Of a DNA stretch of 64,000 nt, positions 3,964-41,906 are shown one piece after another. A program made the translations under genes and the position numbers. The DNA is from Candidatus Latescibacterota bacterium (GTDB lineage Bacteria; Latescibacterota; UBA2968; GCA-2709665). Positions within the stretch are counted from its first letter, which is position 1; each line of letters opens with the position of its first letter. Below the pieces are notes generated by a model. The model ran no database searches. It saw only the letters and a program-made list of their open reading frames with translations, and was not told the DNA's origin. The stretch is from the NCBI GenBank assembly GCA_965208835.1, contig OZ242358.1, forward strand, positions 3,072,001-3,136,000. The letters are read 5' to 3'.

Positions 3964-5278
3964 GACTGCGGTGTTGTATGTCGTCTGCGCGCTGCCGGCT
4001 TCCGCGCAGATTCACGATCACCGTTTGTTCTATTGGAACGATAACCGGGCACCGCTGACGATGTTGGACATCGTCTTTCTCGGAGCGGGTAGCATCCAGG
4101 ACGAGGCTTCAACGACCGGACTTGCGGTGACCGCCAACAGACTGATGAAGGACTTTTCGAAACGGCACGGATACACCGCACGATTGGAGACTTTGGGTAC
4201 AAAGATCGAATTCAGCACGTATTATGAAAACCAGGTAATCTCTATCTCCGCCTTGTCCACAAACCTAACAGCATCTGTAGGAATCGTGGACGATCTGATA
4301 CGCCGTTTTGCAATCACGGGTCTCGTACTCAAAGAGGTAAAGCGGGATTTACAGAGGATTTACCAGAAGTCGGTAGACGCCGGCGGCCACGATATCCTGA
4401 GGAACTACGCGCTTGCACGTACGGTAGGTGTAGCGAGATGGTTTTCGGGCGAAGCACTGAGACATATCACGTTAGAAGACGTCCGGAAGAATAGCACGGC
4501 GTTTCTGAGCGCGGACGTTGTCTTTTTCAAGGCAATCTCCAACCTTGATTCCACGGCGGTCGAGAAAGCACTGGTGCCATTCACGAATAACCGCCGACGA
4601 GGGGGTTTCGTCTGGTCTCCGCCAACACGTAAAAACGATCCCCTTCCAGGACATTCCGCGCTCATCTTTGAGCATTACTCTCACCTGAAAAACGTCTACT
4701 GTTACTGGCTCATCCCAATTGGAAGGGTTGGCGAGGACAATCACGTACCCAACATGGTGTCGTGGACGCTGGGACGCCCGAATAGCCGTGGGTTGCTCGA
4801 CGAATATTTGCGCGACGAATTAGGGTTGGTTTATAGCACTTCCTGCTCGTTTCAAAGTGAAGATGATGTCAGATTTATTGAGATTGGCGCCGATCCAATG
4901 CTGAAAAACAGCGAGGCACTGATAACGAAAACGCACGAGTTCATTGCAGGACTCGCCGAAAATCCGGATTTCTGGACCTCAATCGGCGAGTTACGCGCAA
5001 ACCCCGACTTTATCGACGCTCATACACACGGTGAGCAGACGCCGCGGCGAAAACTGAACCGTGCAGCAGATCAAGCCATGTATAACTTTCCGAGTCGCGA
5101 AGACGACATCAGGTCCGTCACCGATGCCGAGATCCGGTCGTTTCTCAAGGAATACTTCGTGGAACAGAATCTGGTAATGATGTTGTATGGACCGAAGGAA
5201 CACATCATCGAAATCCTGGAAAAACACTGGCCGGATATCACCATTCACGTGCAGCCCGTAGAGAAGGCGATCGAATAG
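3935..5278 (+). CDS. M16 family peptidase, non-catalytic partner subunit
   Basis: Overlaps the first M16 gene; LRDELGLVYS is the M16 C-domain R/Y motif; no HxxEH; signal peptide ending ASA. Confidence 0.8.
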   Translation: MIKPINTTLRTAVLYVVCALPASAQIHDHRLFYWNDNRAPLTMLDIVFLGAGSIQDEASTTGLAVTANRLMKDFSKRHGYTARLETLGTKIEFSTYYENQVISISALSTNLTASVGIVDDLIRRFAITGLVLKEVKRDLQRIYQKSVDAGGHDILRNYALARTVGVARWFSGEALRHITLEDVRKNSTAFLSADVVFFKAISNLDSTAVEKALVPFTNNRRRGGFVWSPPTRKNDPLPGHSALIFEHYSHLKNVYCYWLIPIGRVGEDNHVPNMVSWTLGRPNSRGLLDEYLRDELGLVYSTSCSFQSEDDVRFIEIGADPMLKNSEALITKTHEFIAGLAENPDFWTSIGELRANPDFIDAHTHGEQTPRRKLNRAADQAMYNFPSREDDIRSVTDAEIRSFLKEYFVEQNLVMMLYGPKEHIIEILEKHWPDITIHVQPVEKAIE

Positions 5279-8600: not shown

Positions 8601-8954
8601 ATGATCAAAGGCGTACACACCATGTTTTATTCGTCGGACGCGTCGGGTCTCCGTGCGTTCATCAGGGACAAACTCGGGTTTTCGGCCACGGACGTGGGCG
8701 ACGGCTGGTTGATCTTCGACGTCCCTGAGGCGGATATGGGCTGTCATCCAACGGAAGAAGACGCAGGTCCGAAATCGGGCGATGCGGATATCTCCTTTTA
8801 CTGTGACGAGATTGAATCCACGGTCGCTGACTTGAAGCAAAAAGGCGTGGTTTTTACGCGTGAAATCGAAGACCACGGCTACGGGCTGGTGACGTACTTC
8901 GAAGCGCCCGGCGGGTTTGATATACAGCTCTACCAGCCTCACTATGCCAGATAG
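8601..8954 (+). CDS. VOC/glyoxalase family protein
   Basis: ISFYCDEIESTVADLKQKGV...DHGYGLVTYFEAPGG; RBS AGGAG. Confidence 0.9.
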   Translation: MIKGVHTMFYSSDASGLRAFIRDKLGFSATDVGDGWLIFDVPEADMGCHPTEEDAGPKSGDADISFYCDEIESTVADLKQKGVVFTREIEDHGYGLVTYFEAPGGFDIQLYQPHYAR

Positions 8955-9477
8955 ACCGTCCGCGTCCTCGCGGGAACGCCGTCCGCACCCGACCCGGCAA
9001 GACGCGCCTCAATTCCGTGCCGGCGATCGCCTGGGTGTCGTCTCCGACTCCCATGGACTCCTGAGGCCGCGGGTCGCAGAGCTCCTTCAGGGCGTCCGGG
9101 CGATCGTCCACGCCGGGGATGTGGGCAAGATTTCGGTTCTGGAGGAATTGGAACGCATCGCGCCGGTATACGCCGTCCGCGGTAATGTGGACCTGGTTCC
9201 GCCCTGCAGCGATCTGCCCGAGAGTCTCGTGCTGACCGCCTGCGGGCAAAGGATTCTCGTGACGCACATTCTCGAAGAAGCCGATCCCGCGGGTTTCGAT
9301 CTCGTGGTCTGCGGTCACTCTCACATACCGAAAATAAGCACGGTTGGATCGGCATGCTGCCTGAATCCGGGCAGCATCGGGCAACGCCGGTTCCGGCTTC
9401 CGGTATCGATGGGGTACATAACGGTTTCTTGCGACGGCGCCCTCGTGCCGGAACTGCGGGCGGTTGAGATTGAGTAG
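8944..9477 (+). CDS. Metallophosphoesterase (YfcE/MJ0936 family)
   Basis: SDSHG, HAGD, GNVD, GHSH and NPGS motifs. Confidence 0.9.
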   Translation: MPDRPSASSRERRPHPTRQDAPQFRAGDRLGVVSDSHGLLRPRVAELLQGVRAIVHAGDVGKISVLEELERIAPVYAVRGNVDLVPPCSDLPESLVLTACGQRILVTHILEEADPAGFDLVVCGHSHIPKISTVGSACCLNPGSIGQRRFRLPVSMGYITVSCDGALVPELRAVEIE

Positions 9478-9523
9478 TTTGGGCCGAGTGAACTTTCGAT
9501 TCGACGCACGGTCAGGGACTCCG

Positions 9524-9812
9524 CCCCCCCACCGCATCAGCCGTCGCCGACCCCTTCGACAAGCTCAGGGGACGGACTCGGCTTCTGCGACTCCCCCTCA
9601 AGGGGGGAGTGATAGGGTTTTGCTGCCCGAAAGGTCTAAAGAATGACAAACGCTCAGGATTGATTCCACGCCGCAGTAGATCCTTCGTCGGCCTGCGGGG
9701 CACCCTTCGACATGCTGAGGGCAAGTCCTCTGGATGACAGTCCCCGCCATCGTGTGACGGACACGTAACGACAATGGTCACTACAAAACATGCCATTCTG
9801 AGCGGAGTCGAA
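9524..9812. repeat. Cluster of nested REP-like palindromes
   Basis: CCCTTCGACAAGCTCAGGG (9552-9570) recurs as CCCTTCGACATGCTGAGGG (9703-9721). Also hairpin ACTCCCCC-TCAAG-GGGGGAGT (9590-9610), AGATCCTTCG...GGATGACA (9678-9739) and the inverted cognate TGCCATTCTGAGCGGAGTCGAA (9791-9812). Confidence 0.7.
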
Positions 9813-9868
9813 TCAGCCATTGAATGACGGACGTATTTCGTACAAACTGCATAGCGAGGATACCTCAA

Positions 9869-11539
9869 ATGACAAACGAAAACAATAAGACGGACAGTAC
9901 CCATGCCGACTGGGTGATTTCACGGATGGTCAAGCCTCCCGAGTTGGAGAATACCGGCTATATTGCAGAGAGCAAGGGCAAGGGCCCGGAGGTCTGGGCG
10001 ATGTTCTGCGCGACGATACGGGGCGACCTGGAAACGATTCAGAGGCTCGCCGAGCGAAATCCTGACCTTGTCCGTTGCGTACACTACTACACGCAACCCA
10101 TCAAGTTCGCGGTCCGCGAGGGTCACGCCGAAGTCGTCCGTTACCTCCTGAATAATGGAGCCAGTCCTTTCTACCGGACACGGATATTCCACGATTCGCT
10201 GGTCAACCTGGCCGCCGACCGGGAGCACGAGGAGATCGTGAAGATCCTGGAAACGGCCATCAGCGAACGGAGCGGTGGGTACAGACGGGAAACGGAACCC
10301 GTTGCGAACGAGCTCATCGACGCGGTTCACGCGCGCGATTACGAAAAGACGACACACATTATCCGGAACGCTCCCGAGCGGGTCAAATTGAGCAACGCGA
10401 ACGGGACCACGGCCCTTCACGAGGCGGTTTCGATCGGCGACTTTTACCTGACCAGGCTGCTTCTGGACAACGGCGCCGATATCCAAGCGCAGGCCGGCGC
10501 GGGCTTCAGTACCGGACAGAAGCCAATCCATGTCGCACTCTACGCCGGATGGCGGGACAGGATTCTCATTCGCAAGAAAGCGGCGCTGGCGGGTTATCTG
10601 GTCGCCCGTGGCGCGGACTACAATATCCTCATAGCCTCCGCGTTCGGCGACATCCGGCGCGTCCGGGAGTACCTGGACGCGGAACCATCGCTGGCCAATT
10701 TCCGAGATACCTGCGACAGGCTGCCGGTTTCCATCGCGGCCGGTCGGGGCCATCACGATATCGTGGAACTTCTGCTTGAAAATGGCGCAGATCCGAATGC
10801 GCCGGAGCCCGACGCGCCTCGCGGAAAGGCCCTGCTCGAGGCCGTGTTCCATGGGCATACCGCCATCGCCGAGTTGCTTCTCGAACACGGCGCCGACCCC
10901 AATGGCAACGTGGACTCCACCGGCACGGCATTCCACCACGCCAGAAAGAATCCTGAACTCTACGAATTGATGAAATCGTTCGGCGGCCGGGTGGATATCA
11001 TCCCCCCGATCAGCGCCGCGGTCAACGCCAATGACCTGGAGCGCGTGGACGAAATACTCACGCAGAACCCCGAAGAGATCGCGAACGCGAAACTGGGCAA
11101 CCCCGCCCGGCGCGGCAGGCTGGAAATGGTGAAGCTGCTCCTGAAGCACGGCTCGGCCATTTCCGGTACGAACCACGGCTCGTTCTTCCGGGTCTACAAA
11201 ACGGCGAAATTCCTGCTCGATAACGGGGCAAATCCGAATTACAGGAACTGGCAGGGGATCTCTTCCCTCCACAACATCGCGCACGAGGGTGACGTCCGGA
11301 GAGCCGGTCTTCTGCTGGACTACGGTGCGGCGATCAATGCGATAGAACCCGAGTACTGTTCGACGCCGCTTGGGCTGGCGTGCCGGTCGGGTCATGCGCC
11401 GATGGTGGAGTTTCTCCTCACACGGGGAGCGGACGCCGGCTTGCCGCGCGAACACCCATGGGCGAGGCCGCTCGCATGGGCGAAAAAGAAAGAACACCCT
11501 GAGATCGTCAGGATTCTACACGACCACGGTACAACGTAG
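9869..11539 (+). CDS. Ankyrin repeat protein
   Basis: Many repeats (GTTALHEAV...LLLDNGADI, GHHDIVELLLENGADPN, STPLGLAC); RBS GAGGA before ATG 9869. Confidence 0.95.
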   Translation: MTNENNKTDSTHADWVISRMVKPPELENTGYIAESKGKGPEVWAMFCATIRGDLETIQRLAERNPDLVRCVHYYTQPIKFAVREGHAEVVRYLLNNGASPFYRTRIFHDSLVNLAADREHEEIVKILETAISERSGGYRRETEPVANELIDAVHARDYEKTTHIIRNAPERVKLSNANGTTALHEAVSIGDFYLTRLLLDNGADIQAQAGAGFSTGQKPIHVALYAGWRDRILIRKKAALAGYLVARGADYNILIASAFGDIRRVREYLDAEPSLANFRDTCDRLPVSIAAGRGHHDIVELLLENGADPNAPEPDAPRGKALLEAVFHGHTAIAELLLEHGADPNGNVDSTGTAFHHARKNPELYELMKSFGGRVDIIPPISAAVNANDLERVDEILTQNPEEIANAKLGNPARRGRLEMVKLLLKHGSAISGTNHGSFFRVYKTAKFLLDNGANPNYRNWQGISSLHNIAHEGDVRRAGLLLDYGAAINAIEPEYCSTPLGLACRSGHAPMVEFLLTRGADAGLPREHPWARPLAWAKKKEHPEIVRILHDHGTT

Positions 11540-31294: not shown

Positions 31295-34200
31295 TTATCG
31301 TGCCGCAACGGAATCATACGCCAGGCCGAACACCGTATCAGCCATCCAGCGCTTGAAATCCTTGTCGTCCATATACCGCTTGAACAGCTCGGTGTCATCC
31401 TTCATCACTCCGGTCATCACGCGCAGCAGCGCCTTGTCGTGTTCGATTCGTGCATTCTGGCGGTCGGAGTTCACCCGGGCGTTTCGGAAGGCCGTGTCGG
31501 CGGCGACGCGGGCCGGAATGGTTTCTGTGATGAGCTGCTTGACGCGGTCTTTATCCTCCCATTCGATATCTCCGAAATGCTCGTTGAATACGCGAAGTAT
31601 GTTTGAGAGTCGATCCAATTCCAGCTCCGGTTGATGCCCTCCCCCTGAACCCGGTACCGGATCGATCTCGGCATCTTCGTCCTCTAACAGGATCTTTTGC
31701 ATCGCCCGCTTCTCCACCCGGTAGCTGTCCAGATCGATCGCGTCTAGGATTCCCTTGGATAGGTCCTCTTCCTCGGGCGCCGGCAACTTCGGGACCAGGA
31801 AGTTCAGGAAGATAGAACGCTTTTCCCATTCGACAACATTGTACGGAAGGACGGATGAGAGAAAGGCGTACGTTCGCACGAATGCTTTGGCGTTCCCCTT
31901 GAATGCGACCTGGCCTTCTTCGTCCAGGTCGTGTCGATAGACAGCGACACAAGCGTCCAAAATAGGATCCAGCCGGTCGCGTTCGACACCTTCCAGATAG
32001 AGCCGCACAAACTCGTCGATCTTCATTTCAGAATAGACCTGGGGTCCGTCCAGTTCCGCCTGCAGGTCGTGCAGCTTGTTCGGGTCCGTCTCATCGGCCA
32101 GAATCGTCGTCCGGTAGAAGTCAGAAAACGCATCTTGAATCGTATCGGTGTCGTTGAGAAAGTCGAAGACGAACACGTCGTGTTTCTTCGGGTGGGCCCG
32201 GTTGAGCCGTGACAGCGTCTGCACGGCCTTGATGCCGGACAGCGTCTTGTCTACGTACATGGTGTGCAACAATGGCTCGTCGTAGCCGGTCTGAAATTTG
32301 TCCGCGCACACCAGGAACCGGTACGGATCCTCCTGAAATCGCCTGGCGATCTGGGCCGAAGGCAGACCGTTCAGCGACGCCTCGCTTACCCTGCCGCCGC
32401 CGAAGTCATGTTCGCCGGAGAACGCGACCAGCGCCTCAAATTGGCTCTTGCGCTCCTTGAGATAGTCGCGGATGGCATGGTAGTACTGAATCGCGCGCTC
32501 GATGCCGTTCGTGACCACCATCGCCCGCGCCGCGCCGCCGATCTTACCCTGCTTCAGCACCTGGTCGTGGAAGTGGTCGACCATGATCTCCGCCTTAAGG
32601 CGGATCGCGTGCTCGCTGCCCTCCACGAAGCGGCGCAGCTTCTTCTGCGCCTTGCGAGCGTCGAACTCGGGGTCGTCTTCGACCGTCTTTGCAAGCTTGT
32701 AGTAGCTCGCCACAGGCGTATAGTGCGACAGTACGTCCAGGATGAATCCTTCCTGGATCGCCTGCTTCATGGTGTAGCTGTGGAACGCGCGATGCCTCAC
32801 CGTACCGTCGGGCTGCGATTCCGGGGCGCCGAAGATCTCGAGCGTCTTGTTCTTCGGCGTGGCGGTAAACGCGAAGTAGCTGGCGTTGGGAAGCAGCTTG
32901 CGCGACTCCATCAGACGGTTGATCCGGTCCTCGAAGGTATCCTGATCGTCCTCTTCGCCCGCCACCGACAGCGCCTGAGCCATCGCCGCGCTGGTGCGAC
33001 CCCCCTGGCTCGAGTGGGCTTCGTCGATGATGATGGCGAAGCGCTTCCCCCGCTGTTCATTGCCAGTCTCATCCAGAATGAACGGGAACTTCTGGACCGT
33101 GGAGATGATGATCTTCTTCCCGCTTTCGATGAATTCACGAAGATCGCCCGAGCGGTCGGCGTGTCCGACCGTCGCCGCCACCTGGGCGTACTGCTTGATC
33201 GTGTCGCGGATCTGGCGGTCCAGGATAACCCTGTCCGTGACGACAATGATCGAGTCGAAGACCGAAGCGTCGTCCTTCTCCAACCCGATCAACTGGTGCG
33301 CGAGCCATGCGATGGAGTTGCTCTTGCCGCTGCCGGCGGAATGCTGGATCAGGTAGCGCTGACCGGCGCCGCGGTCGCCCGCGTCGGCCAGCAGGCGGCG
33401 CACCACGTCGAGTTGATGGTAGCGCGGCCAGATTTGAGTCTTTCGACTCCTTCCGCTCTTTTCGTCCTTCGACGCCACCACCTGCGCGTAATTCTCGAAG
33501 ATGTTGGTAAGACTCTCCCGGGTGAGCACTTCGCGCCAGAGATAGGCGATTGAAAGACCGTCCGGATTGGGCGGGTTGCCCGCCCCGTCGTTCCAGCCGC
33601 GGTTGAAAGGCAGAAACCAGGACGCCTTACCCTTCAGATGCGTACAAAAACGCACCTCGCGTTCGTCCAACGCGAAGTGCGCGATGCACCGCCCGAACTC
33701 AAACAGCTTTTCACGCGGGTTGCGGTCCTTTTTGTACTGCCAGACCGCATCGTCCACCGTCTGTTTGGTGAGGCTGTTCTTCAACTCGAACGTGAATACC
33801 GGCAGCCCGTTGACGAACAGCCCGATGTCCAGCGCCCGCTGCGCCTCGTCCCTGCTATAGCGAAGCTGCCGCGTAACGGTATAACGATTCAGCTCGAACA
33901 ATTCCTGGGCCTGCGGATTGCCGGCCGACGGCGTGCCGTAGAACAGGTCCAGGCTCAACGCCCCGTGCTTTATGCCGTTACGCAGGACGTCGATGGTGCC
34001 GCGTTTGCTGATTTCACCCTGGAGCCGTGTCAGAAACGCGCGCCGCACGGGGCCGTCTTCGGAAAGCGGCAACGCCTCGGCGGCCTCCGGCTGGGTGGAC
34101 CGCAGGAATGCCGACAATTGCGCCAGATCGACGCAGAACTCACGGTTATAGTCGTGGTGATTGCCGCAGCTCCAGCCGACACCGCCGTATCCGGCGGGCG

Positions 34201-34300
34201 GTTCTCCCACGGTGCCTGAAACAGGTGGCTCGCAGCCCTGGCCCGTCAGGGCGGCGCAAATCAGGCGTTCAAGCCCGCTCTCGGTGGTGTCTGTGTTCAC
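31295..34300 (-). CDS. hsdR: Type I restriction enzyme, R subunit
   Basis: Nuclease motif DIGLFVNGLP...ELKN; QHSAGSGKS; IIDEAHSSQ; FTATPK; KFQTGYDEP; QTLSRLNR. Confidence 0.97.
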   Translation of the reverse strand: MNTDTTESGLERLICAALTGQGCEPPVSGTVGEPPAGYGGVGWSCGNHHDYNREFCVDLAQLSAFLRSTQPEAAEALPLSEDGPVRRAFLTRLQGEISKRGTIDVLRNGIKHGALSLDLFYGTPSAGNPQAQELFELNRYTVTRQLRYSRDEAQRALDIGLFVNGLPVFTFELKNSLTKQTVDDAVWQYKKDRNPREKLFEFGRCIAHFALDEREVRFCTHLKGKASWFLPFNRGWNDGAGNPPNPDGLSIAYLWREVLTRESLTNIFENYAQVVASKDEKSGRSRKTQIWPRYHQLDVVRRLLADAGDRGAGQRYLIQHSAGSGKSNSIAWLAHQLIGLEKDDASVFDSIIVVTDRVILDRQIRDTIKQYAQVAATVGHADRSGDLREFIESGKKIIISTVQKFPFILDETGNEQRGKRFAIIIDEAHSSQGGRTSAAMAQALSVAGEEDDQDTFEDRINRLMESRKLLPNASYFAFTATPKNKTLEIFGAPESQPDGTVRHRAFHSYTMKQAIQEGFILDVLSHYTPVASYYKLAKTVEDDPEFDARKAQKKLRRFVEGSEHAIRLKAEIMVDHFHDQVLKQGKIGGAARAMVVTNGIERAIQYYHAIRDYLKERKSQFEALVAFSGEHDFGGGRVSEASLNGLPSAQIARRFQEDPYRFLVCADKFQTGYDEPLLHTMYVDKTLSGIKAVQTLSRLNRAHPKKHDVFVFDFLNDTDTIQDAFSDFYRTTILADETDPNKLHDLQAELDGPQVYSEMKIDEFVRLYLEGVERDRLDPILDACVAVYRHDLDEEGQVAFKGNAKAFVRTYAFLSSVLPYNVVEWEKRSIFLNFLVPKLPAPEEEDLSKGILDAIDLDSYRVEKRAMQKILLEDEDAEIDPVPGSGGGHQPELELDRLSNILRVFNEHFGDIEWEDKDRVKQLITETIPARVAADTAFRNARVNSDRQNARIEHDKALLRVMTGVMKDDTELFKRYMDDKDFKRWMADTVFGLAYDSVAAR

Positions 34301-34722
34301 TTCGGAGCCTGCTGGTGCGTGAACGGGTTGATGACCCGGAGGCCGTCGTAGTCCTGTTCTGTGCTCAAATCCTCGGAATACACGGCATCGCAGCCCAGGG
34401 CACGAGCTGCGGCGAGAATCGCGCCATCCCAGTAGGAAAGGCGAAAACGTCGGCTAATGGCAATGGCATCGAGAAATACGTCCGTCGACATGGTCTGAAT
34501 CCGGAAAAGCAGAATCGGCTCCAGGAATTGCAATGCTTTATTGCCAGAAAGACTGCCGATTCGAGTCGGCCGGGTGGCCTGGTGGTAGAACTCCTGCAGC
34601 ACCTGAACGGACGCAGCGAGGTCGGGTTCCGTCAGGACTTCCGCCGCCCGCGCCCGCTTGTCGGCCTCCCCTGGGATCTCGCTGACAGCATACAGCAGAA
34701 TGTTGGTATCTACGAATCGCAT
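34297..34722 (-). CDS. PIN domain (VapC-like) toxin
   Basis: FVDTNILLY...QVLQEF...SYWDGAI...YSEDL...NPF; stop overlaps the hsdR GTG. Confidence 0.93.
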   Translation of the reverse strand: MRFVDTNILLYAVSEIPGEADKRARAAEVLTEPDLAASVQVLQEFYHQATRPTRIGSLSGNKALQFLEPILLFRIQTMSTDVFLDAIAISRRFRLSYWDGAILAAARALGCDAVYSEDLSTEQDYDGLRVINPFTHQQAPK

Positions 34723-35072
34723 GGTGAGGATCTGAGTGCTTCGGAGATACTGCGCTGCCGCTCCCGCTCGGCGACAGCTTCGGCCCTTGCCGCGTTGCGA
34801 TCGTACAACGCCTCCCTGGGAAGGTTGTCGGACATCCGCAACCCGATACCCTGTCTATCGAAGTCCGCGAGCACCTCCCGCAGCAGCCTGCACCGACGCT
34901 GATAGATGGTTTCGACAGACCCGGAACCGGATTCCCCATCCGTGTCCGGGTTCTCTGCCAGACTCTTCAGAAAGTCTCGCACGAGGGACGATACCGACGT
35001 GTCCAATTCTGCCGCACGGATACGCGCAAGCCGATGGGTCTCTTCGTCGACGGATACGGTGATATTTCTCAT
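34710..35072 (-). CDS. RHH-type antitoxin (VapB-like)
   Basis: MRNITVSVDEE...ARIRAAELDTSVSSLVRDFL...REALYDR; overlaps the PIN gene. Confidence 0.85.
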   Translation of the reverse strand: MRNITVSVDEETHRLARIRAAELDTSVSSLVRDFLKSLAENPDTDGESGSGSVETIYQRRCRLLREVLADFDRQGIGLRMSDNLPREALYDRNAARAEAVAERERQRSISEALRSSPCDS

Positions 35073-35083
35073 AGTCACAGCCT

Positions 35084-35133
35084 CACAGTTTCTGTGTGGC
35101 ACAATATAGGCATTTGCCGGTCGATAGGCAAAT
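35084..35133 (-). promoter_or_regulatory. Putative vapBC(-hsdR) promoter and operator palindromes
   Basis: Minus strand TTGCCT (35131-35126)-17 bp-TATATT (35108-35103); inverted repeats CACAG-TTT-CTGTG (35084-35096) and ATTTGCC/GGCAAAT. Confidence 0.55.
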
Positions 35134-35640
35134 CCTGCGAGGGCGCAAATCAAGCGTTCTAACCGGTGTTCGAAGGTGTCAGTGTGCGGGTTGTCAAGTA
35201 CCCGTCAAGTAAAAATCGACCTTATAAGTCACTGAAAATACACGATTAATGATATCTACCTGATCCGAATCGGATACGTGAATGAAATCGCCAACAAGTA
35301 CCGGTATCGTCTCATTCCTTCGCCGACCACGGCATTGCAGCTCCCACCAACATTCCATAGTCACCAAGCAGGCGAACGAGCAGTACTTGACGTTCTGGGG
35401 GTACATCAGTATGCTTCCAAGCGTTCGGAGTTTGTGCCACCCATGGCCTTTTGACTTACTGGCCGGCACCTTTATACCACGAAGTCGCGCTTTTTAATAG
35501 CCGTGTTCGGCAGCCCACGCCCAGAACACCAGCAGCTGAACTACCTGATTCAAAATGCATCAACGCCATCTCACAGTCTCCCAAACCCGTGCGCCAGCGC
35601 AGTCGATTAGCGGGCCTTTATTCAATCCGAGAATTGCCAT

Positions 35641-36516
35641 ATGAATACATCTGCGCAAACATTCTCGATAAATTCAACTCAAGAAGCCTCGTTATTCGAG
35701 GCGTTCTTGCACCGATACGCGGCTTCCTCACACCCTTCACTAGGTGCCATCATTCCCAAGACGCTTTTGTCCCGTGTGTATTGCTACTGCGCGGAACAGG
35801 ACGACTTCAGACTGTTTTATGCGATATTAGATCTTGAGCTAGTCTGGCTATTTTCGCTCAAGGATAGCCATTCCCCGGCCGGACTATGGAATCAAGTATT
35901 GTGGGAACATCGGCATAGTCCGAAAACCATACTTGAAGACTTCTCCACGTTCTGCGCTCGTATGGATATCCTAGACAGCTTCAATTCAATTTCTCTGCGA
36001 CTCCGTGCGTGTTGGGACAAGTACTTGGGAATCCTGGTTCTATTGCATGAGCCAGACAAGTACGAAGTATATGCAAGAGCAACGAGCAGGAAAAGGAAGT
36101 TTACCAAAATCGCAAGAGAATGGGAGGGTAACATATCTCGCCACATTGTCCAAGCTATCACCACAGTATTTCGAAACAGGTTAGTTCATGCGCACAAGCT
36201 CTTTGGCGACAAGCTCACGAAAAAACAGATCGAAGAAACGAACCGATGCATCGAATTCTTCCTTCATCATGAATTGAAATACCCAGATCCTGCAGTTGAT
36301 CTAATGACCCAACACATTGACTCCATCGATCAGGTCAGGACCCCGGAAGCGCACGGCACAGGGGTATTGCGAAAGTGGTCTCTCGCCTCTCTCCCGCCGG
36401 ACGTTTCCAAAGACTTCTCACTGTACAATCACTCGAATGACTTTAGCGTTTATATGAATGGATTGCACCGTTCAGTAACAGATCTTGTCGGCAACGACGC
36501 AGGATCAAGTACATAA
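35641..36516 (+). CDS. Hypothetical protein, candidate HEPN ribonuclease
   Basis: All-helical, low GC; FNSISLRLRACWDKY and an RxxxxH motif RTPEAH near the C-terminus. Confidence 0.55.
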   Translation: MNTSAQTFSINSTQEASLFEAFLHRYAASSHPSLGAIIPKTLLSRVYCYCAEQDDFRLFYAILDLELVWLFSLKDSHSPAGLWNQVLWEHRHSPKTILEDFSTFCARMDILDSFNSISLRLRACWDKYLGILVLLHEPDKYEVYARATSRKRKFTKIAREWEGNISRHIVQAITTVFRNRLVHAHKLFGDKLTKKQIEETNRCIEFFLHHELKYPDPAVDLMTQHIDSIDQVRTPEAHGTGVLRKWSLASLPPDVSKDFSLYNHSNDFSVYMNGLHRSVTDLVGNDAGSST

Positions 36517-36586: not shown

Positions 36587-38029
36587 TCATTTGGATTCGC
36601 AACGGCCGTCATGATCGATCGGATCATCTACATTGTCTTCTGCCAGTTTATCCAATTCCGGCAGTTTATCCGAAGCCCCGCGCACGTCAAGCTTACCAGT
36701 GACGACATCGGCGATCAATCGGGTGCGGTATTCGCGAAGAAGCTCGACCTCTCGATGGACGGCCGCTTGGGAACCCTCTATACCTGCCATTTCAGCTGTG
36801 ATATACTTGACGATCAGGTTTTGTTCAGTTTGCGACGGAATACCGATAGATCTTCCAGAGGTTGCCTGGAGATTGGTTCGTTGCCGGGTAGCCCCAGTCG
36901 AAAGCACGGCTGAAGCAACAGTCGAGGTAGCGGTTAGTTGGACTGCGGCAAACCTTGGTTGAATTCGAGCTTGATTTAGTCGAAACCTGAAACAATCAGC
37001 TTTCACCATTGCGGGGATGATTTTCTCCGGTGCGACACATGCTCGACCCGCTGGATGGTTGTTGTCGCCCAACCCGGCTATTAAGACGTCTCCCGAAATG
37101 ACGGAATGATCGCCCAGCGACGAATAATGTTCGGGCGAAATAAAGGCTGCGTCGGAGTCTTTGAATTCTCCATGTCCGATGTTCTGAAGCCGTACCACTC
37201 TTATTCCTTGCTCAGTATAGTGTGAAGACTTCAATCCGGAACCAAACGGCCCATCGCAACTGTCAAGGGTTACTCTCCGCAATGGAACGACATCCCAATC
37301 CTCTGGCACATTTCCCAACCACCCCACCCCGGAGTCTTTGTAAGCCAGATAGGGCTGGCCGGTTCGGACGTCGATCTGGCCCGTGACCGCCTGGTGGATG
37401 ATGGCCTGCTTTTGCTCCTCCAGCAGCGCAATCAGCTTCTGCTTCGCACGGATGTAGCGCCGGATGCGCCGGTCGGCGTGGTCAAGGAAGCGCACGATGG
37501 CGGCTTGTTCGGGTAGGGGTGGGAAAGGAACTCGTAGCTTTGATATGTCTTCTGGAGAGCATCGTTGATGGCTCTTTGTCGCCGAGTCGACTCTTGAACT
37601 CAATTCAAGCCTTACGTGCTCGGACTCATAAAGGTACCGTGCAAATTCGCCCACGCAGTATTTTGGTTCCATGGGCACAAACTCACTTGAAGCAAGTGTT
37701 GTGAGCCTGCGGTCAGGCGCTGCTAGAGCTATCGTCCCTTTTCTAGGATTCAGTTTCGACACTAGAAGCAGAATGCGGTCGACTAGAGTCTTCGATGAGT
37801 CTATAGAGAATCCCGATTCGATGACACCACCGCCAACCTCTTGGACGTTTGGAATTGAATAGTGCACAACTTGCTGTTCGGATATTTCATTTGGATCTAC
37901 AGATTGCTTAACTACGGACAGCCGACGATCAGCCCGCTGCACTTCCCATTGCTCAGGTACAAACCCTAACCATTTTTCACCGGAGTCCTTATAGCCAGGA
38001 TAGGGTTTGAGATTCGAGGTTGTCATCAT
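36587..38029 (-). CDS. hsdS: Type I R-M specificity subunit
   Basis: Repeated PYxxYKDSG..WLG..P..W motifs, PPLPEQAAIVRFLD, LLEEQKQAIIHQAVTG, LREYRTRLIADVVTGKLDVR; two TRDs. Confidence 0.96.
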   Translation of the reverse strand: MMTTSNLKPYPGYKDSGEKWLGFVPEQWEVQRADRRLSVVKQSVDPNEISEQQVVHYSIPNVQEVGGGVIESGFSIDSSKTLVDRILLLVSKLNPRKGTIALAAPDRRLTTLASSEFVPMEPKYCVGEFARYLYESEHVRLELSSRVDSATKSHQRCSPEDISKLRVPFPPLPEQAAIVRFLDHADRRIRRYIRAKQKLIALLEEQKQAIIHQAVTGQIDVRTGQPYLAYKDSGVGWLGNVPEDWDVVPLRRVTLDSCDGPFGSGLKSSHYTEQGIRVVRLQNIGHGEFKDSDAAFISPEHYSSLGDHSVISGDVLIAGLGDNNHPAGRACVAPEKIIPAMVKADCFRFRLNQARIQPRFAAVQLTATSTVASAVLSTGATRQRTNLQATSGRSIGIPSQTEQNLIVKYITAEMAGIEGSQAAVHREVELLREYRTRLIADVVTGKLDVRGASDKLPELDKLAEDNVDDPIDHDGRCESK

Positions 38030-38032
38030 CTT

Positions 38033-38620
38033 TCACCACTGTAGGGGCGACCGGCCGGTCGCCCCTGTGCCGATTGGATCCTGGCCATCCGAAATGGCAG
38101 GATTTTCCGGGTCCTCCGACCATCCGACCGGGTTATCCGCGATGTATTGCCGAATCCGATCCAGCGCGGATTCGTTCCGGATAATGTGTTCGTAGTAGTT
38201 GCGCTGCCAAACCGGTGTGCCGGGCGTGCCACGCATGGTGTTGATACGCTTGGTTGCTGCAGATTTAAATCCGGCCATCATGGCGCCGAGTGACCTGGGT
38301 CGCAGCCCGCCACGGGCGACCGGCCGGTCGGCCCTACGGCGTTCGTCGGCAATAATAACGATACCATGAATATGGCTGGGCATGACAACCCAGGCGTCGA
38401 GATCGATCTCGATACGGACCTGCGCAGATTTTCGCCATTCCTCCTCAGCTATCCGGCCGAGCTCATTCAGCGCCACCTCACCATCTTTCACCACGCCGAA
38501 AAGTGATTTACGCCCTCTTGTGCAGACGGTGATGAAATATGCGCCCGCCCGTGAATAATCGTAGTCGCGCAATCGGGTCGACCGTCGGTGGGGTTTTTCC
38601 GGATCGCAGGAGCCGTTCAT
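38033..38620 (-). mobile_element. REP-associated tyrosine transposase (RAYT, Y1 HUH)
   Basis: RRSTRLRDYDYS..GAYFITVCT, MPSHIHGI (HUH), WQRNYYEHIIRNE, YIADNP. Confidence 0.92.
38041..38066. repeat. GTAG-type REP palindrome
   Basis: GTAGGGGCGACCGGCCGGTCGCCCCT; further copies at about 38314-38337, 38749-38776 and 41907-41930. Confidence 0.85.
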
Positions 38621-38748
38621 TATGTCCTCAGACTCTCGTCCAACAACCCCTCCGTCTCTTTCTCAAGGGCTATAACCCGAATCTCCGCAAGCGTGCACAA
38701 CGACTCAGGAAGACATTTGAGATCCGAGGTCATCGATTCATATACCAA
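38620..38748 (-). pseudogene. Decayed duplicate of the hsdM 3' end
   Basis: Minus strand reads ...PESLCTLAEIRVIALEKETEGLLDESLRT* versus HsdM PQPMRTLEEIGADILALEKETEGLL; its TAA overlaps the RAYT ATG. Confidence 0.8.
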
Positions 38749-38867
38749 TGTAGGGCGACCGGCCGGTCGCCCCTACGGCTATGGGATCCTGGCCATCCCA
38801 ATCGGCAGGATTCTCCGGGTCTTCAGACCATCCGGCCGGGCTATAACGCGATGTATTGCCGAATCCG
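38749..38867 (-). repeat. Diverged duplicate of RAYT 3' end plus REP
   Basis: About 120 bp direct repeat of 38040-38158 (REP...GGATCCTGGCCATCC...GCGATGTATTGCCGAATCCG). Confidence 0.85.
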
Positions 38868-38939
38868 CCCCCAATTCACGATGTGCCGAAAATTCCAGCT
38901 TACGCCGAAAGCCTTCGTTGCCCTCCCGGTCTTAACCAT
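38841..38939 (-). pseudogene. Chimeric mini-ORF: small partner N-terminus / PIN fragment / RAYT C-terminus
   Basis: MVKTGRATKAFG-VSWNFRHIVNWG-RIRQYIAL*; the start overlaps the previous stop (TGATG). Confidence 0.7.
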
Positions 38940-39175
38940 CAATCGCCCTCGGCGCCGGATCGACCGCCGTCGCTTGCCCCATCGTCCTGCCAGGGTCGCA
39001 CAACCCTGGACTTCGGGATGCGAGCGAAGTAGGGATCCTTGTGGGCAGCCGCGTTGAGCCGCCGGCGCCGCCCTTCAGGGGACACTCCCGCCAGCTTCGC
39101 GTTGATCCGGTCCCGGACCTCGCGCGTCCACTGTACGCAGTCGAACGCCTTTGCGTCGCTCTCACGCTTCTTCAT
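38939..39175 (-). CDS. Small PIN-associated protein, paralog 2 (candidate antitoxin)
   Basis: KAFDCVQWTREVRDRINAKLAG; RBS AAGGAG inside an upstream PIN remnant. Confidence 0.7.
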   Translation of the reverse strand: MKKRESDAKAFDCVQWTREVRDRINAKLAGVSPEGRRRRLNAAAHKDPYFARIPKSRVVRPWQDDGASDGGRSGAEGD

Positions 39176-39230
39176 TTGCAAGCTCCTTCGGACTGCAAAT
39201 GTCCACCGGGGGTACCCGATGCGCTTCAGT
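39162..39230 (-). pseudogene. C-terminal remnant of a second PIN gene
   Basis: LKRIGYP/PVDICSPKELANEEA* (1-nt frameshift) versus the intact PIN end RKSGYPAIDIRTPEEIVHD*. Confidence 0.7.
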
Positions 39231-39241
39231 TTCCCTTCGGT

Positions 39242-39457
39242 TCAGCTGTCGGAACTGTCTGTTGGCCCGTCCTGCGTGGATTTGCGTATTCGCGCGGCCA
39301 TTGCTTCCAACACGGGGTCGGAATACCGTTTGGAATTGAACCACTCTACCGTTTCCTCTGCAGTCATGCCGGCAGTTTCGGCGGTTATGCGGGCGCGGGC
39401 CTTGCGCATGAATTCGACACAGTCGAATTTCTTTTTTTTCTGGGTTTCATCAGTCAT
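39242..39457 (-). CDS. Small PIN-associated protein, paralog 1 (candidate antitoxin)
   Basis: KKFDCVEFMRKARARITAETAG; overlaps the hsdM-PIN stop by 8 nt. Confidence 0.75.
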   Translation of the reverse strand: MTDETQKKKKFDCVEFMRKARARITAETAGMTAEETVEWFNSKRYSDPVLEAMAARIRKSTQDGPTDSSDS

Positions 39458-41891
39458 GGACGATTTCCTCCGGCGTGCGAATGTCAATAGCGGGGTATCC
39501 GCTTTTGCGATTGACCTCGTTGTAGGCTCTGATACGCCGCCAATTCACCATGTGCCTGAAATTCCAGCTTGCCAGAACGTCTGCCTCGGCCAGAGTCGCG
39601 ATGGCAATATGCAGCGCATCGGTCCGGTTTGCCCCACCTATGGCGCCAGCCGCTATGTAGGCATCAGCAAGCTCTCTTGCTTCTCTTGAAACGGCGAGTG
39701 TTTCCGTGTGTCCCTGGGGAACGATGCTGGCCGCCCGCCTGACGGGGGGCGAAGCATCCGCGAGTTCATCCAGGGTGATGTTCGAGATGAGCATCGTGGC
39801 GTCACCCTGGCGAAAGACCTCGAACAACTGCGTCGATTGTTCCCGGAATTCATCGTCGAGACACCCGCCGATCACAGAGGTATCCACGTAGATGCGCGGC
39901 TTGCCGTACAAAGCCGGCGGTTCGCGTATCAACGGCAGATCGCCGAGCAGCCCCTCAGTTTCTTTCTCCAGCGCCAGAATATCCGCACCGATTTCCTCCA
40001 GGGTCCGCATGGGCTGGGGCTTGTAGAAGTATCGCGTGAAGCTGATCTCATAGCCAACTTTTACGCTGTCGGCTTGATACCAGGCGTCAGCGGCGTAGGG
40101 AAGGACTTCCCGCCCCAGGAACGCTTCGATGCCGCCTTCCTCCTGCAGCGGAATCTGCTCGGTGTCGCGCAGTTCGGTGTCCGGTTCGTACTCGACGACC
40201 GCAGGTCTGCCGTTAACGGTAGCCTCAAACCTGCCACGAAGCGGGTCGGCTTCCGTGCCCCTCTTGTGGATCTTCCTGATGACAGGCGGCGCGCTTTCGC
40301 TGCGTTCGCTACTATCCTTGAGTTTCTTGATCTCGGTGGCCTTGTAGGCGCGGTCGGGGTCGATCCCGTCGAGCCGAAGCGGCCGCTCGACCGTCACCTT
40401 CCAGTAGCCGAAGGCGGCGTTGTCGAAGATCTTGCTCTGTTCGGTTTCCTCGAAGGCCAGGAATGTGTCGCAGATGCGCCGGATGTCCTCCTCGCCAAGT
40501 TCGCAGTTCTTCTTGCCCAAATTCTTTCGCAGCGGCCGGTACCACTCGGTGGCATCGATCAACTGCACCTTGCCCCGGCGATGCTCCGGCTTCCGGTTGG
40601 TGATCACCCACACGTAGGTCGCGATGCCGGTGTTGTAGAACATATTGAGCGGTAGCGCGACGATCGCCTCTAGCCAGTCGTTTTCAATGATCCAGCGCCG
40701 GATATTGCTCTCGCCCTGCCCGGCATCGCCGGTGAACAACGAACTGCCGTTGTGCACCTCGGCGATGCGGCTGCCGCCCTCCTTCATCTTGGACAGCTTG
40801 TTGGCGAGGAAGAGCATCTGCCCGTCGCTGGACCGGGTAACGAGCGAATACTCGGGATCGTCCGCGTGCTCGATCACGAACCGCGGGTCCCGCATTTCCT
40901 TCTTGCCGCCCATGCGCTCCAGGTCGGTCTTCCAACTCTTCCCGTAGGGCGGATTGGAGAGCATGAAGTCGAACTCGCGGGACGGGAAGGCGTCGTTGGC
41001 CAGTGTGGAATGCTCCGGACCGCCGACGATGTTATCCGCCGCGTCCCCTTCACCCTTCAGTAGCAGGTCGGCCTTGCAGATGGCGTAGGTCTCGGCGTTG
41101 ATTTCCTGTCCGTACAGGTGCGTTGAGACCTGCTTGTCGCGCTCGGCGGCGAGTTGCTGAAGGACCTCTTCGGCCACGGTCAACATGCCGCCTGTGCCGC
41201 ACGCGCCGTCGTAGATCAGGTAGGTGCTGGATGTAATCTCGTCAGCGACGGGCAGGAAAACCAGCTTCGCCATCAGGGTTACCGCGTCGCGCGGCGTCCA
41301 GTGTTCTCCGGCCTCCTCGTTGTTCTCCTCGTTGAAACGCCGGATCAGCTCCTCGAAGATCGTGCCCATGCCGTGGTTGTCCAGGCCGGGGTGTCTGACC
41401 GAGCCATCGCCGTTGTGCACCGGGGCCGGGCTCAGGTTGACGTCGGGTGTGGTCAGCTTTTCGATCAACGTGCCCAGGGCATCGGCCCTGGAAAGACGGG
41501 GGACCTGGTTTCGGAATTCGAAGTTCTCGAGGATATCCTGGACGTTTGGCGAGAACCCGTCCAGCCAGGCCCTGAAGTCGGCCTCGAGCTGCTGGCGGTT
41601 CGCACGGGCGCGAAGGTCGCGCAGGGTGAACCTGGAGGTATTGTAGAAATCCTGCCCGGCCGCCTGCTTCAATGGCTCCTCCTGGTCGACCAGGCGGATC
41701 TTATCGAGGGAAGCCTGCATGTCCAGGACCGCCTGTTTGCTATCCTCCAGTACCGCGTCGAGACGGCGCAGCACGGTCATCGGCAGGATCACGTCGCGAT
41801 ACTTGCCGCGCACGTACAGGTCGCGGAGGACGTCGTCCGCGATGCCCCAAATGTAGTTCGCGATCCAGTTCAGGTTGGCGCTGGTTGCCAT
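39450..41891 (-). CDS. hsdM: Type I R-M N6-adenine methyltransferase with C-terminal PIN domain fusion
   Basis: YRDVILPMTVLRRLD, AGEHWTPRD, YDGACGTGGML, YGQE, NPPYG. In-frame PIN at about 39450-39902 (RIYVDTSVIGG...DEL...DALH...SWNFRH). Confidence 0.95.
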   Translation of the reverse strand: MATSANLNWIANYIWGIADDVLRDLYVRGKYRDVILPMTVLRRLDAVLEDSKQAVLDMQASLDKIRLVDQEEPLKQAAGQDFYNTSRFTLRDLRARANRQQLEADFRAWLDGFSPNVQDILENFEFRNQVPRLSRADALGTLIEKLTTPDVNLSPAPVHNGDGSVRHPGLDNHGMGTIFEELIRRFNEENNEEAGEHWTPRDAVTLMAKLVFLPVADEITSSTYLIYDGACGTGGMLTVAEEVLQQLAAERDKQVSTHLYGQEINAETYAICKADLLLKGEGDAADNIVGGPEHSTLANDAFPSREFDFMLSNPPYGKSWKTDLERMGGKKEMRDPRFVIEHADDPEYSLVTRSSDGQMLFLANKLSKMKEGGSRIAEVHNGSSLFTGDAGQGESNIRRWIIENDWLEAIVALPLNMFYNTGIATYVWVITNRKPEHRRGKVQLIDATEWYRPLRKNLGKKNCELGEEDIRRICDTFLAFEETEQSKIFDNAAFGYWKVTVERPLRLDGIDPDRAYKATEIKKLKDSSERSESAPPVIRKIHKRGTEADPLRGRFEATVNGRPAVVEYEPDTELRDTEQIPLQEEGGIEAFLGREVLPYAADAWYQADSVKVGYEISFTRYFYKPQPMRTLEEIGADILALEKETEGLLGDLPLIREPPALYGKPRIYVDTSVIGGCLDDEFREQSTQLFEVFRQGDATMLISNITLDELADASPPVRRAASIVPQGHTETLAVSREARELADAYIAAGAIGGANRTDALHIAIATLAEADVLASWNFRHMVNWRRIRAYNEVNRKSGYPAIDIRTPEEIVHD

Positions 41892-41906
41892 CGGAATTCC
41901 TTGCAC

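Follow-up and report, generated by a model that had tools for sequence, protein, structure and literature searches.

An in-frame fusion of the type I methyltransferase subunit HsdM to a PIN-fold domain, with a coupled small gene, as a candidate toxin-inhibitor module

The DNA considered here, called the window throughout, is a stretch of 64,000 nucleotides from contig OZ242358.1 of a Candidatus Latescibacterota bacterium (assembly GCA_965208835.1). Its type I restriction-modification (R-M) locus encodes a methyltransferase subunit, HsdM, that continues in frame into a PIN-fold domain and is followed by an overlapping gene for a protein of 71 amino acids. This fusion is almost certainly real and under selection. 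The PIN domain and the small gene constitute a widespread, pre-existing and unnamed two-gene module that is also found standing alone; judging from the alleles within the genus of the window, the pair varies and recombines as a cassette while HsdM stays constant. The reading favoured in this study, with some reserve, is that of a toxin-inhibitor module of a very common, uncharacterised kind whose toxin gene has become an in-frame extension of the hsdM 3' end, and which would most likely make the locus addictive or serve as a backup by abortive infection.

A preceding reading of the same letters, made by a model that had no database searches at its disposal (hereafter the sequence-only reading), had described the fusion and its coupled partner and had proposed that a toxin built into the methyltransferase could trigger abortive infection or render the R-M locus addictive. 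The anatomy that it described was right and its interpretation is partly supported; the stand-alone module, the second small gene at 38939-39175 and the polymorphic recombining cassette were absent from it.

The HsdM-PIN fusion and its distribution

The N-terminal part of the fusion protein carries the HsdM_N and N6_Mtase domains (Table 1), an NPPY motif is visible in its translation, and hsdS and hsdR lie in the same locus, all as expected of an HsdM; its score against the TIGR00497 model is 93.5, under the equivalog cut-off of 242.75. The ATG at 41891 is the likely start of the gene and gives a protein of 813 residues, in line with homologues of 812-813 residues. The last HsdM helix is the usual C-terminus in unfused orthologues, and those of three same-genus genomes (G003, G007 and G014; 92-94% identical) terminate 6-10 residues past 'EGLL'; the window protein therefore extends past the usual HsdM end, as the sequence-only reading had claimed. 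The 'ALEKETEGLL' stretch begins at residue 645 (nucleotide 39974) and 'PRIYVDTS' at residue 670 (nucleotide 39899) of one open frame, and stops are present in both alternative frames over the junction. Upstream of the PIN part there is no ATG and no Shine-Dalgarno-like run, merely two in-frame TTG codons, in agreement with the earlier observation that no obvious ribosome-binding site precedes it. In the full-length structure model the PIN part folds as a domain of its own, with blocks at a predicted local distance difference test score (pLDDT) of 82-94, and the linker is disordered (residues 649-667 below 50). Despite this modelled disorder the linker consensus V-R-E-P-x-x-x-Y-G-K is conserved, with V660, R661, E662, P663, Y667 and K669 each kept in 53-63 of 70 fused proteins.

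The junction, which the sequence-only reading had wished to see confirmed, is bridged by other contigs. A contig from the probable source sample spans 39200-40182 with zero differences, and the interval 39900-39975 is crossed without gaps, at 16-25 substitutions, by contigs of three runs from two other studies (X5, X7 and X9). Many contigs from other HsdM genes diverge from the window at 39946-39991, as expected of unfused relatives. A search for the architecture returned 175 protein clusters of 449-1432 residues (PIN part at E<=1e-3; 1419 candidates), so that the fusion is not unique to this assembly. Nearly all of the 120 fused clusters listed are 810-895 residues long and carry PF02384 and PF12161, and PIN identity runs from 91% down to 51%. 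As the Pfam models miss the PIN part, those fused proteins whose records bear a name are labelled simply 'N-6 DNA methylase' or 'type I restriction enzyme M protein'. Since 175 clusters share the in-frame architecture and contigs from other studies bridge the junction, chance or an assembly artefact is excluded as its source.

The best 80 of 595 confirmed PIN loci from species-representative genomes were surveyed for their gene context. Intact fusions were found in seven of them, from several phyla (the records name Latescibacterota, Gammaproteobacteria, Pseudomonadales, Bryobacterales, Acidobacteria, Thermoanaerobaculia and Ca. Multivorans), and two more lie in fragmented R-M loci. Among 14 same-genus relatives of the window, which are kin and not independent samples, the fusion is present and free of stops in eight.

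Two further interpretations of the homologues were considered and set aside. Short matches of 186-278 residues start within the HsdM tail and could be taken for split genes; one of them, P0007, may be an alternative gene call of the full-length cluster P0129, and another, P0012, is, except for its start residue, the sequence of a spare cassette in the relative G001. The hsdM-tail motif is found in 25 of 59 mid-length PIN proteins in the database. Additionally, many independent fusions might be read from a FastTree phylogeny of 313 PIN domains (114 fused and 199 stand-alone, 155 columns), in which 46 pure fused clades are interleaved with stand-alone sequences. These clades were not counted as separate fusions because the alignment is short, some of the 'stand-alone' rows are partial gene calls, and the exchange of cassettes is shown separately. 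The conserved linker and the HsdM parts, at least 70% identical, fit a single origin of the fusion followed by exchange.

The PIN domain and its small partner

The C-terminal 164 residues of the protein align end to end with the Pfam families PIN_3 and PIN at scores below the curated cut-offs (17.8 bits against 27 and 16.5 against 23.6, respectively). No credible relative came out of the PDB when it was searched by sequence with this piece, with a PIN profile and with a profile of the small protein, and a fold search was needed for the identification of the PIN domain. An AlphaFold2 model of the 164-residue piece, built on 124 homologues, reached a pLDDT of 93.8, and Foldseek with this model gave 23 matches at E<=0.001, led by VapC/PIN chains; the top matches include 1w8i, 6ifc, 3zvk, 5ecd and 3tnd (E 4e-5 to 1e-3, template modelling score 0.5-0.67). 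The piece thus has the PIN fold, an alpha/beta/alpha domain with a parallel sheet and about 130-150 residues. The ESM Atlas returned clusters carrying PIN on 13-27% of their members, and among the database matches listed a precomputed PIN family is assigned to 15 of 120 stand-alone homologues and to one of 120 fused proteins. PADLOC returned nothing for the fused PIN.

The conserved positions of the domain are D21, D30, E60, D109, S126-W-N128-F and H131 in the numbering of the 164-residue piece (675, 684, 714, 763, 780-783 and 785 in the full protein). They are kept in 96-100% of the 114 fused and 93-99% of the 199 stand-alone proteins; in the fused set, D21, E60 and D109 are each retained in 98-100% and D30 in 96%. 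Members of the PIN-like superfamily have three near-invariant acids, one following strand 1, one at the N-terminus of a helix and one following strand 4, together with a fourth. The VDTS, DEL, DALH and SWNFRH motifs picked out by the sequence-only reading are columns conserved across the family. Nor is the PIN part under relaxed selection, which that reading had named as a sign against its proposal: over 36 pairs from nine genomes, the median ratio of nonsynonymous to synonymous substitution rates (dN/dS) is 0.22 for PIN and 0.066 for HsdM.

Stand-alone PINs of the same family, about 152-154 residues long, are very common (1323 matches; 3437 representative clusters). Several relatives hold further stand-alone copies elsewhere in their genomes, 36-51% identical and in frames of 153-175 residues (for example G012:C3:560737-561180 and G013:C2:3268972-3269424); in the genome of the window itself, the family is represented by the fused copy only.

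The partner gene was described by the sequence-only reading as overlapping the stop of the fusion, and the overlap is one of 8 nucleotides: the ATG of the small gene at 39457 and the PIN stop (39452-39450) are joined as ATGACTGA, with a GGAGG at 39471-39467, 9 nucleotides 5' of the ATG, so that the two genes are coupled. Across the survey a homologue of the small gene begins between -80 and +150 nucleotides from the PIN stop in 72 of the 80 loci, including all seven fused ones, and the overlap is usually 8, 11 or 14 nucleotides. Four of the other eight loci have the small gene slightly beyond this range and four are without it, one of which ends inside the PIN gene. The co-conservation that the sequence-only reading had asked about is thus present, and the two genes are adjacent, co-conserved and translationally coupled in the manner of a type II toxin-antitoxin (TA) pair.

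The proteins of the small-gene family share a core some 45 residues long, in which one K, D and R are invariant and one F, V and R nearly so; the family counts 3046 members (database clusters), all labelled hypothetical. No Pfam or NCBIfam family was found for the small protein or for 32 members of its family, PADLOC returned nothing for either small protein of the window, and the ESM Atlas returned 'hypothetical protein' clusters only. In three database proteins (P0306, P0348 and P0253) an N-terminus resembling the small protein reads into a PIN domain; these are probably tandem cassettes joined in frame.

Structure prediction of the small protein together with the PIN domain gave a complex score of 0.87, and the best of three controls scored 0.00; of 80 solved complexes 58 attain this mark, and of 110 mismatched pairs 2 do, a rough calibration because own alignments were used. 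The runs share at least 96% of their contacts, with a partner pLDDT of at least 78. The predicted interface comprises PIN residues 21-23, 29-31, 58-65, 104-109 and 127-128, which form the conserved acidic pocket, so that the blocking of an active site expected of an antitoxin is seen in silico only. On these models, the small protein very probably binds and inhibits the PIN domain. The toxin and its partner proposed by the sequence-only reading are accordingly backed in silico by co-conservation, by predicted cover of the active site, by purifying selection and by the co-varying protein types described below.

A swappable cassette and the surrounding locus

Within the genus, HsdM is nearly uniform (dN 0.02-0.05), whereas the PIN domains fall into four classes with 80-99% identity inside a class and 51-63% across classes. 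The type of the small protein co-varies with the PIN class, each class having its own type next to it: class A (the window, G004, G006 and G012) is accompanied by small-protein type A, class B (G008) by type B, class C (G009, G010, G013 and the second cassette of G001) by type C, and class D (the main gene of G001) by type D. Synonymous divergence is discordant between the two parts of the gene in both directions, with a dS of 0.38 in HsdM and 1.49 in PIN between the window and G009, and of 0.51 and 0.28, respectively, between the window and G004; this discordance therefore points to recombination and not to a difference in rate. The same independence is seen in 70 fused database proteins: their HsdM parts share 70-100% identity (median 83%) and their PIN parts 44-100% (median 56%), with a Spearman rho of 0.19 between the two; in 117 of the 221 pairs with HsdM parts at least 90% identical, the PIN parts are at most 65% identical.

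The left boundary of the exchanged segment can be located on the DNA. Identity between the window and the other classes is 76-100% down to about 39858, a stretch that covers the hsdM tail, the linker and the first ~15 PIN codons, and drops to 40-67% from about 39857. Further into the domain, the SWNF block at 39543-39587 (SWNFRHMVNWRRIR) is 93-96% identical in nucleotides to class-C alleles and 78% to those of G001 and G008, in surroundings where the PIN alleles are otherwise 40-65% identical, and this island is likely an internal recombination point.

Remnants of the exchange are found downstream of the cognate small genes. The second small gene of the window is such an orphan and a divergent paralogue of the first; its type B sits after the class-B PIN in G008 and is the sole cassette remnant in G007, whose HsdM is unfused. 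G003, likewise with an unfused HsdM, retains a degenerate PIN remnant. Relatives hold one to four small genes, up to three of them of other types beyond the cognate copy, as well as stray hsdM tails and 3' remnants of PIN, the latter starting at the SWNF block. In G001 a complete spare cassette is preserved, composed of an hsdM tail, a linker, a class-C PIN that is 99% identical to that of G010, and a small gene of type C. The orphan small genes are intact, and their dN/dS of ~0.33-0.35 is close to the 0.30 of the cognate copies. Three of the seven fused loci of other lineages likewise have two or three divergent small genes in a row, and one adjacent duplicate of the small gene was seen in the stand-alone loci.

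Table 1. Features of the hsdM-PIN gene, its partner genes and the surrounding R-M locus in the window.
Feature	Position	Strand	Remarks
hsdM-PIN fusion, open reading frame (ORF)	39450..41906	-	818 aa from GTG at 41906
HsdM_N domain	41454..41864	-	residues 15-151; Pfam, E 8.6e-20
N6_Mtase domain	40440..41378	-	residues 177-489, includes SNPPYG; Pfam, E 1e-52
Last HsdM helix	39948..40001	-	residues 636-653, ...ADILALEKETEGLL; putative left homology arm of the cassette
Linker	39900..39944	-	residues 655-669, GDLPLIREPPALYGK, 15 residues
PIN-fold domain, class A	39453..39899	-	residues 670-818 (149 aa); stop codon 39450-39452
Cognate small gene, type A	39242..39457	-	71 aa; K-x-F-D-C-V...M-R...R motif
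Second small gene, type B	38939..39175	-	78 aa from ATG 39175; own AAGGAG
REP-associated tyrosine transposase-like gene	38033..38620	-	between small genes and hsdS
hsdS, specificity subunit	36587..38029	-	
hsdR, restriction subunit	31295..34300	-	same locus

Downstream of the fusion the order is the 71-residue gene, its 78-residue paralogue, the transposase-like gene, hsdS, an ORF on the opposite strand, a VapBC-like pair and hsdR. The transposase-like gene, associated with repetitive extragenic palindromic (REP) elements, is flanked by direct repeats of about 115 nucleotides (38045-38158 and 38753-38867, 86-100% identical) that contain the palindrome GGGCGACCGGCCGGTCGCCC, a third copy of which lies at 38314-38340. 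Transposase genes or fragments occupy the same spacer in at least seven relatives, and the transposase and REP elements (38023-38867 in the window) may drive the rearrangements. Copies of the hsdM tail between hsdM and hsdS were also observed in other genera of the same family (L096 of G016, 8834-10355, and L097 of G015, 3121-4218), and one extra copy is joined to an unrelated ORF of 246 amino acids in G016 that has no family match; cargo of various kinds may thus generally recombine at the end of hsdM.

The VapBC-like pair between hsdS and hsdR (34297-35153, minus strand) encodes a PIN protein of 141 residues (Pfam PIN, E 5.4e-11) and, upstream of it, a small protein whose start resembles, by eye, a ribbon-helix-helix antitoxin; the vapC stop overlaps the hsdR start, and the pair is kept at the same place in several relatives. 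The opposite-strand ORF P0248 (291 residues, 35641-36516, plus strand) lies in a stretch of lower G+C content, 0.46-0.51 against ~0.6, and belongs to no Pfam or PADLOC family; by eye it shows an R-N-x-x-x-H motif resembling that of HEPN nucleases. Directly past hsdR, the segment 28053-31142 (minus strand) encodes a protein of 674 residues with an ABC-ATPase and a TOPRIM domain, similar to OLD, GajA and AriA (PADLOC Old, E 8.8e-24), and an HNH_5 protein of 327 residues. The whole region is a defence island.

Possible functions and comparison with known systems

Combined, these results suggest the following course of events. The module would consist of a gene for a VapC-like PIN nuclease and a translationally coupled gene for an inhibitor of 50-70 residues, and each HsdM would bear one PIN domain on a flexible linker of ~15 residues behind its last helix. 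This helix presumably docks HsdM onto HsdS, and if it does, there would be two PIN domains per M2S1 or R2M2S1 assembly. Bound over the acidic pocket, as predicted, the small protein would hold the PIN silent. Strains would swap, through homologous recombination, the segment that starts near residue 15 of PIN and reaches to where the small gene ends, and the conserved hsdM tail, linker and PIN N-terminus would serve as left arm; spare cassettes carry the hsdM tail, and each exchange would therefore re-create the fusion. Displaced cassettes would leave behind intact inhibitor genes and truncated PINs. Should the inhibitor be lost while the stable HsdM-PIN persists, the cell would be poisoned and the R-M locus thus locked in, and the same circuit could lead to abortive infection when a phage shuts off host gene expression.

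The pair probably acts as toxin and antitoxin. Addiction is favoured for its function because displaced cassettes keep the inhibitor gene intact while the toxin is truncated; that it is the main role is put at a little under an even chance. The addictive locus of the sequence-only reading thus finds indirect support in the intact small genes beside truncated PINs; the toxicity of the PIN and RNA as its target are inferred.

Several observations weigh against this interpretation. Where VapC-type PINs would be expected to have their fourth acid, this family has an invariant Asn, N128 (residue 782), so that catalytic competence is plausible and not certain; D30 might stand in. The gene order is toxin first, unlike that of canonical VapBC, and no DNA-binding domain is recognisable in the small protein with Pfam or NCBIfam. 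Solved VapBC complexes could partly have lifted the complex score. Between-class differences show no significant concentration on the predicted interface (mean 0.47 at 46 interface positions against 0.41 at 102 others; Mann-Whitney p 0.32). The dN/dS values are drawn from short genes of close kin, and REP elements and the tyrosine transposase could have driven the recombination of which the orphan arrays would then be neutral debris. Lastly, nothing ties the PIN domain to how the R-M complex fares, and a cross-talk with restriction is conjectural.

Of the other explanations, a guard that senses inhibition of the R-M complex fares best and is still considered unlikely. A PIN on the M2S core would be silenced by the small protein together with the intact complex, and a phage anti-restriction protein or host shut-off would free it to cleave RNA and abort the infection, as a covalent analogue of PrrC/EcoprrI. 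The placement of PIN at the HsdM C-terminus on a conserved linker speaks for such a sensor, and hsdS is present in six of the seven fused loci, that is, in all with a long enough flank. The locus moreover belongs to a defence island, whose other genes include another VapBC-like pair and those for the HNH protein and the OLD/GajA-like ATPase-TOPRIM protein, and PrrC, as far as the sources at hand describe it, provides a precedent. However, no sensing element was identified in the fusion, PIN is unrelated to the ABC-ATPase and HEPN design of PrrC, and in 71 of the 80 surveyed loci the same module stands alone with no R-M neighbour; the R-M complex is therefore not needed by the module.

A broader version, in which HsdM is the carrier of a recombination-swappable toxin domain with matched immunity proteins and the PIN reads the state of the R-M complex, is more doubtful still. 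If true, the PIN would fire upon disassembly, anti-restriction inhibition or loss of the locus, orphan inhibitors would give cross-immunity to incoming hsdM-PIN alleles, R-M loci would compete by toxin class, and the whole would be an intracellular counterpart of the toxin-tip systems of contact-dependent inhibition (CDI) and Rhs.

It is improbable that the module is a selfish hitch-hiker, a TA pair that landed behind hsdM and fused when the hsdM stop was lost, the fusion being tolerated and its only effect being linkage. Insertions do gather in the changeable spacer that separates hsdM from hsdS, where a transposase, REP repeats, hsdM tail duplicates and other cargo are found, PIN has been gained and lost within one genus, and the portion of 10.1101/2024.01.29.577857 available here describes defence and TA genes as commonly embedded inside defence loci. 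A merely tolerated fusion is nevertheless hard to reconcile with a frame that is still open across 175 clusters, even where PIN identity has fallen to 51%, with a linker that is conserved though modelled as disordered, with purifying selection on PIN, and with spare cassettes whose hsdM tails re-create the fusion upon exchange; moreover, a separate PIN gene adjoins hsdM in none of the 71 stand-alone loci. Least probable of all is an accessory nuclease that cuts or binds nucleic acid for the R-M complex (single-stranded DNA, flaps, R-loops or phage transcripts) with the small protein as a regulator and not an antitoxin: the PIN-like superfamily as treated in the available part of Matelska et al. 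2017 includes DNA nucleases, the fusion makes PIN stoichiometric with HsdM and the linker is conserved, but hsdR already supplies nuclease and helicase domains, close orthologues manage without PIN, and PIN polymorphism on a constant HsdM, matched small-protein types and orphan arrays form a pattern characteristic of toxin-immunity pairs and unlike that of a core enzymatic domain.

The toxin-inhibitor reading bears on a question of some standing. Links of R-M systems to TA systems and abortive infection have long been discussed, and the physical case described in the sources partly available here is the non-covalent one of PrrC and EcoprrI; to our knowledge, little else is known of physical links between R-M systems and toxins. 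In the literature searched, comprising articles and not their supplements, no HsdM-PIN fusion, no such small-protein family and no orphan arrays behind hsdM are described. The link seen here is covalent, widespread and evolutionarily dynamic, and it is therefore directly testable whether a toxin guards or stabilises an R-M complex, how specificity classes originate and whether R-M loci compete through toxin alleles. On the practical side, both the partner family and the stand-alone PIN family (3046 and 3437 clusters, as above) are unnamed.

With VapBC the module shares the PIN fold, VapC being the closest solved structure, the acidic pocket, the two coupled genes and a partner predicted to lie over the active site. 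It differs in that the toxin comes first and the small gene lies downstream, whereas the canonical VapB is a DNA-binding antitoxin encoded upstream; in that the partner belongs to no Pfam family; in the Asn in place of the fourth canonical acid and the Pfam PIN scores below the cut-offs; and in that the toxin is a domain of HsdM and not a free protein. PrrC of EcoprrI is, in the partial accounts consulted, likewise an RNase-type suicide effector tied to a type I R-M complex, with its gene inside the hsd operon; it is a separate protein with an ABC-ATPase and a HEPN domain, bound non-covalently and triggered by the phage peptide Stp. The extra domain in the window has the PIN fold instead, is covalently fused, and is predicted to have a protein inhibitor of its own.

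The section of Matelska et al. 2017 (PMC5499597) that deals with TA and R-M systems records TA and PIN genes within type I R-M operons, as separate PIN toxin genes transcriptionally coupled to hsdM, hsdS and hsdR, and according to that section a direct interaction of TA and R-M systems had not been shown. The same section, its Supplementary Figure S7 lying outside the part covered, mentions no fusion. The window also carries a separate pair of this embedded kind, the VapBC-like genes between hsdS and hsdR.

A parallel in layout is offered by the polymorphic toxins. CDI and Rhs loci hold orphan toxin-tip and immunity cassettes. HsdM-PIN resembles them in having a constant carrier, a variable C-terminal toxin (here putative) behind a conserved junction, a cognate, presumably protective gene downstream, arrays of displaced immunity-like genes, and spare cassettes that include a piece of the constant region. 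No genes for secretion or delivery were noticed in the locus, where no dedicated search for secretion genes or signal peptides was made. The carrier is of a different nature: HsdM is a cytoplasmic enzyme subunit, and any conflict fought with its exchangeable PIN domains would be intracellular or between genetic elements, and not between cells.

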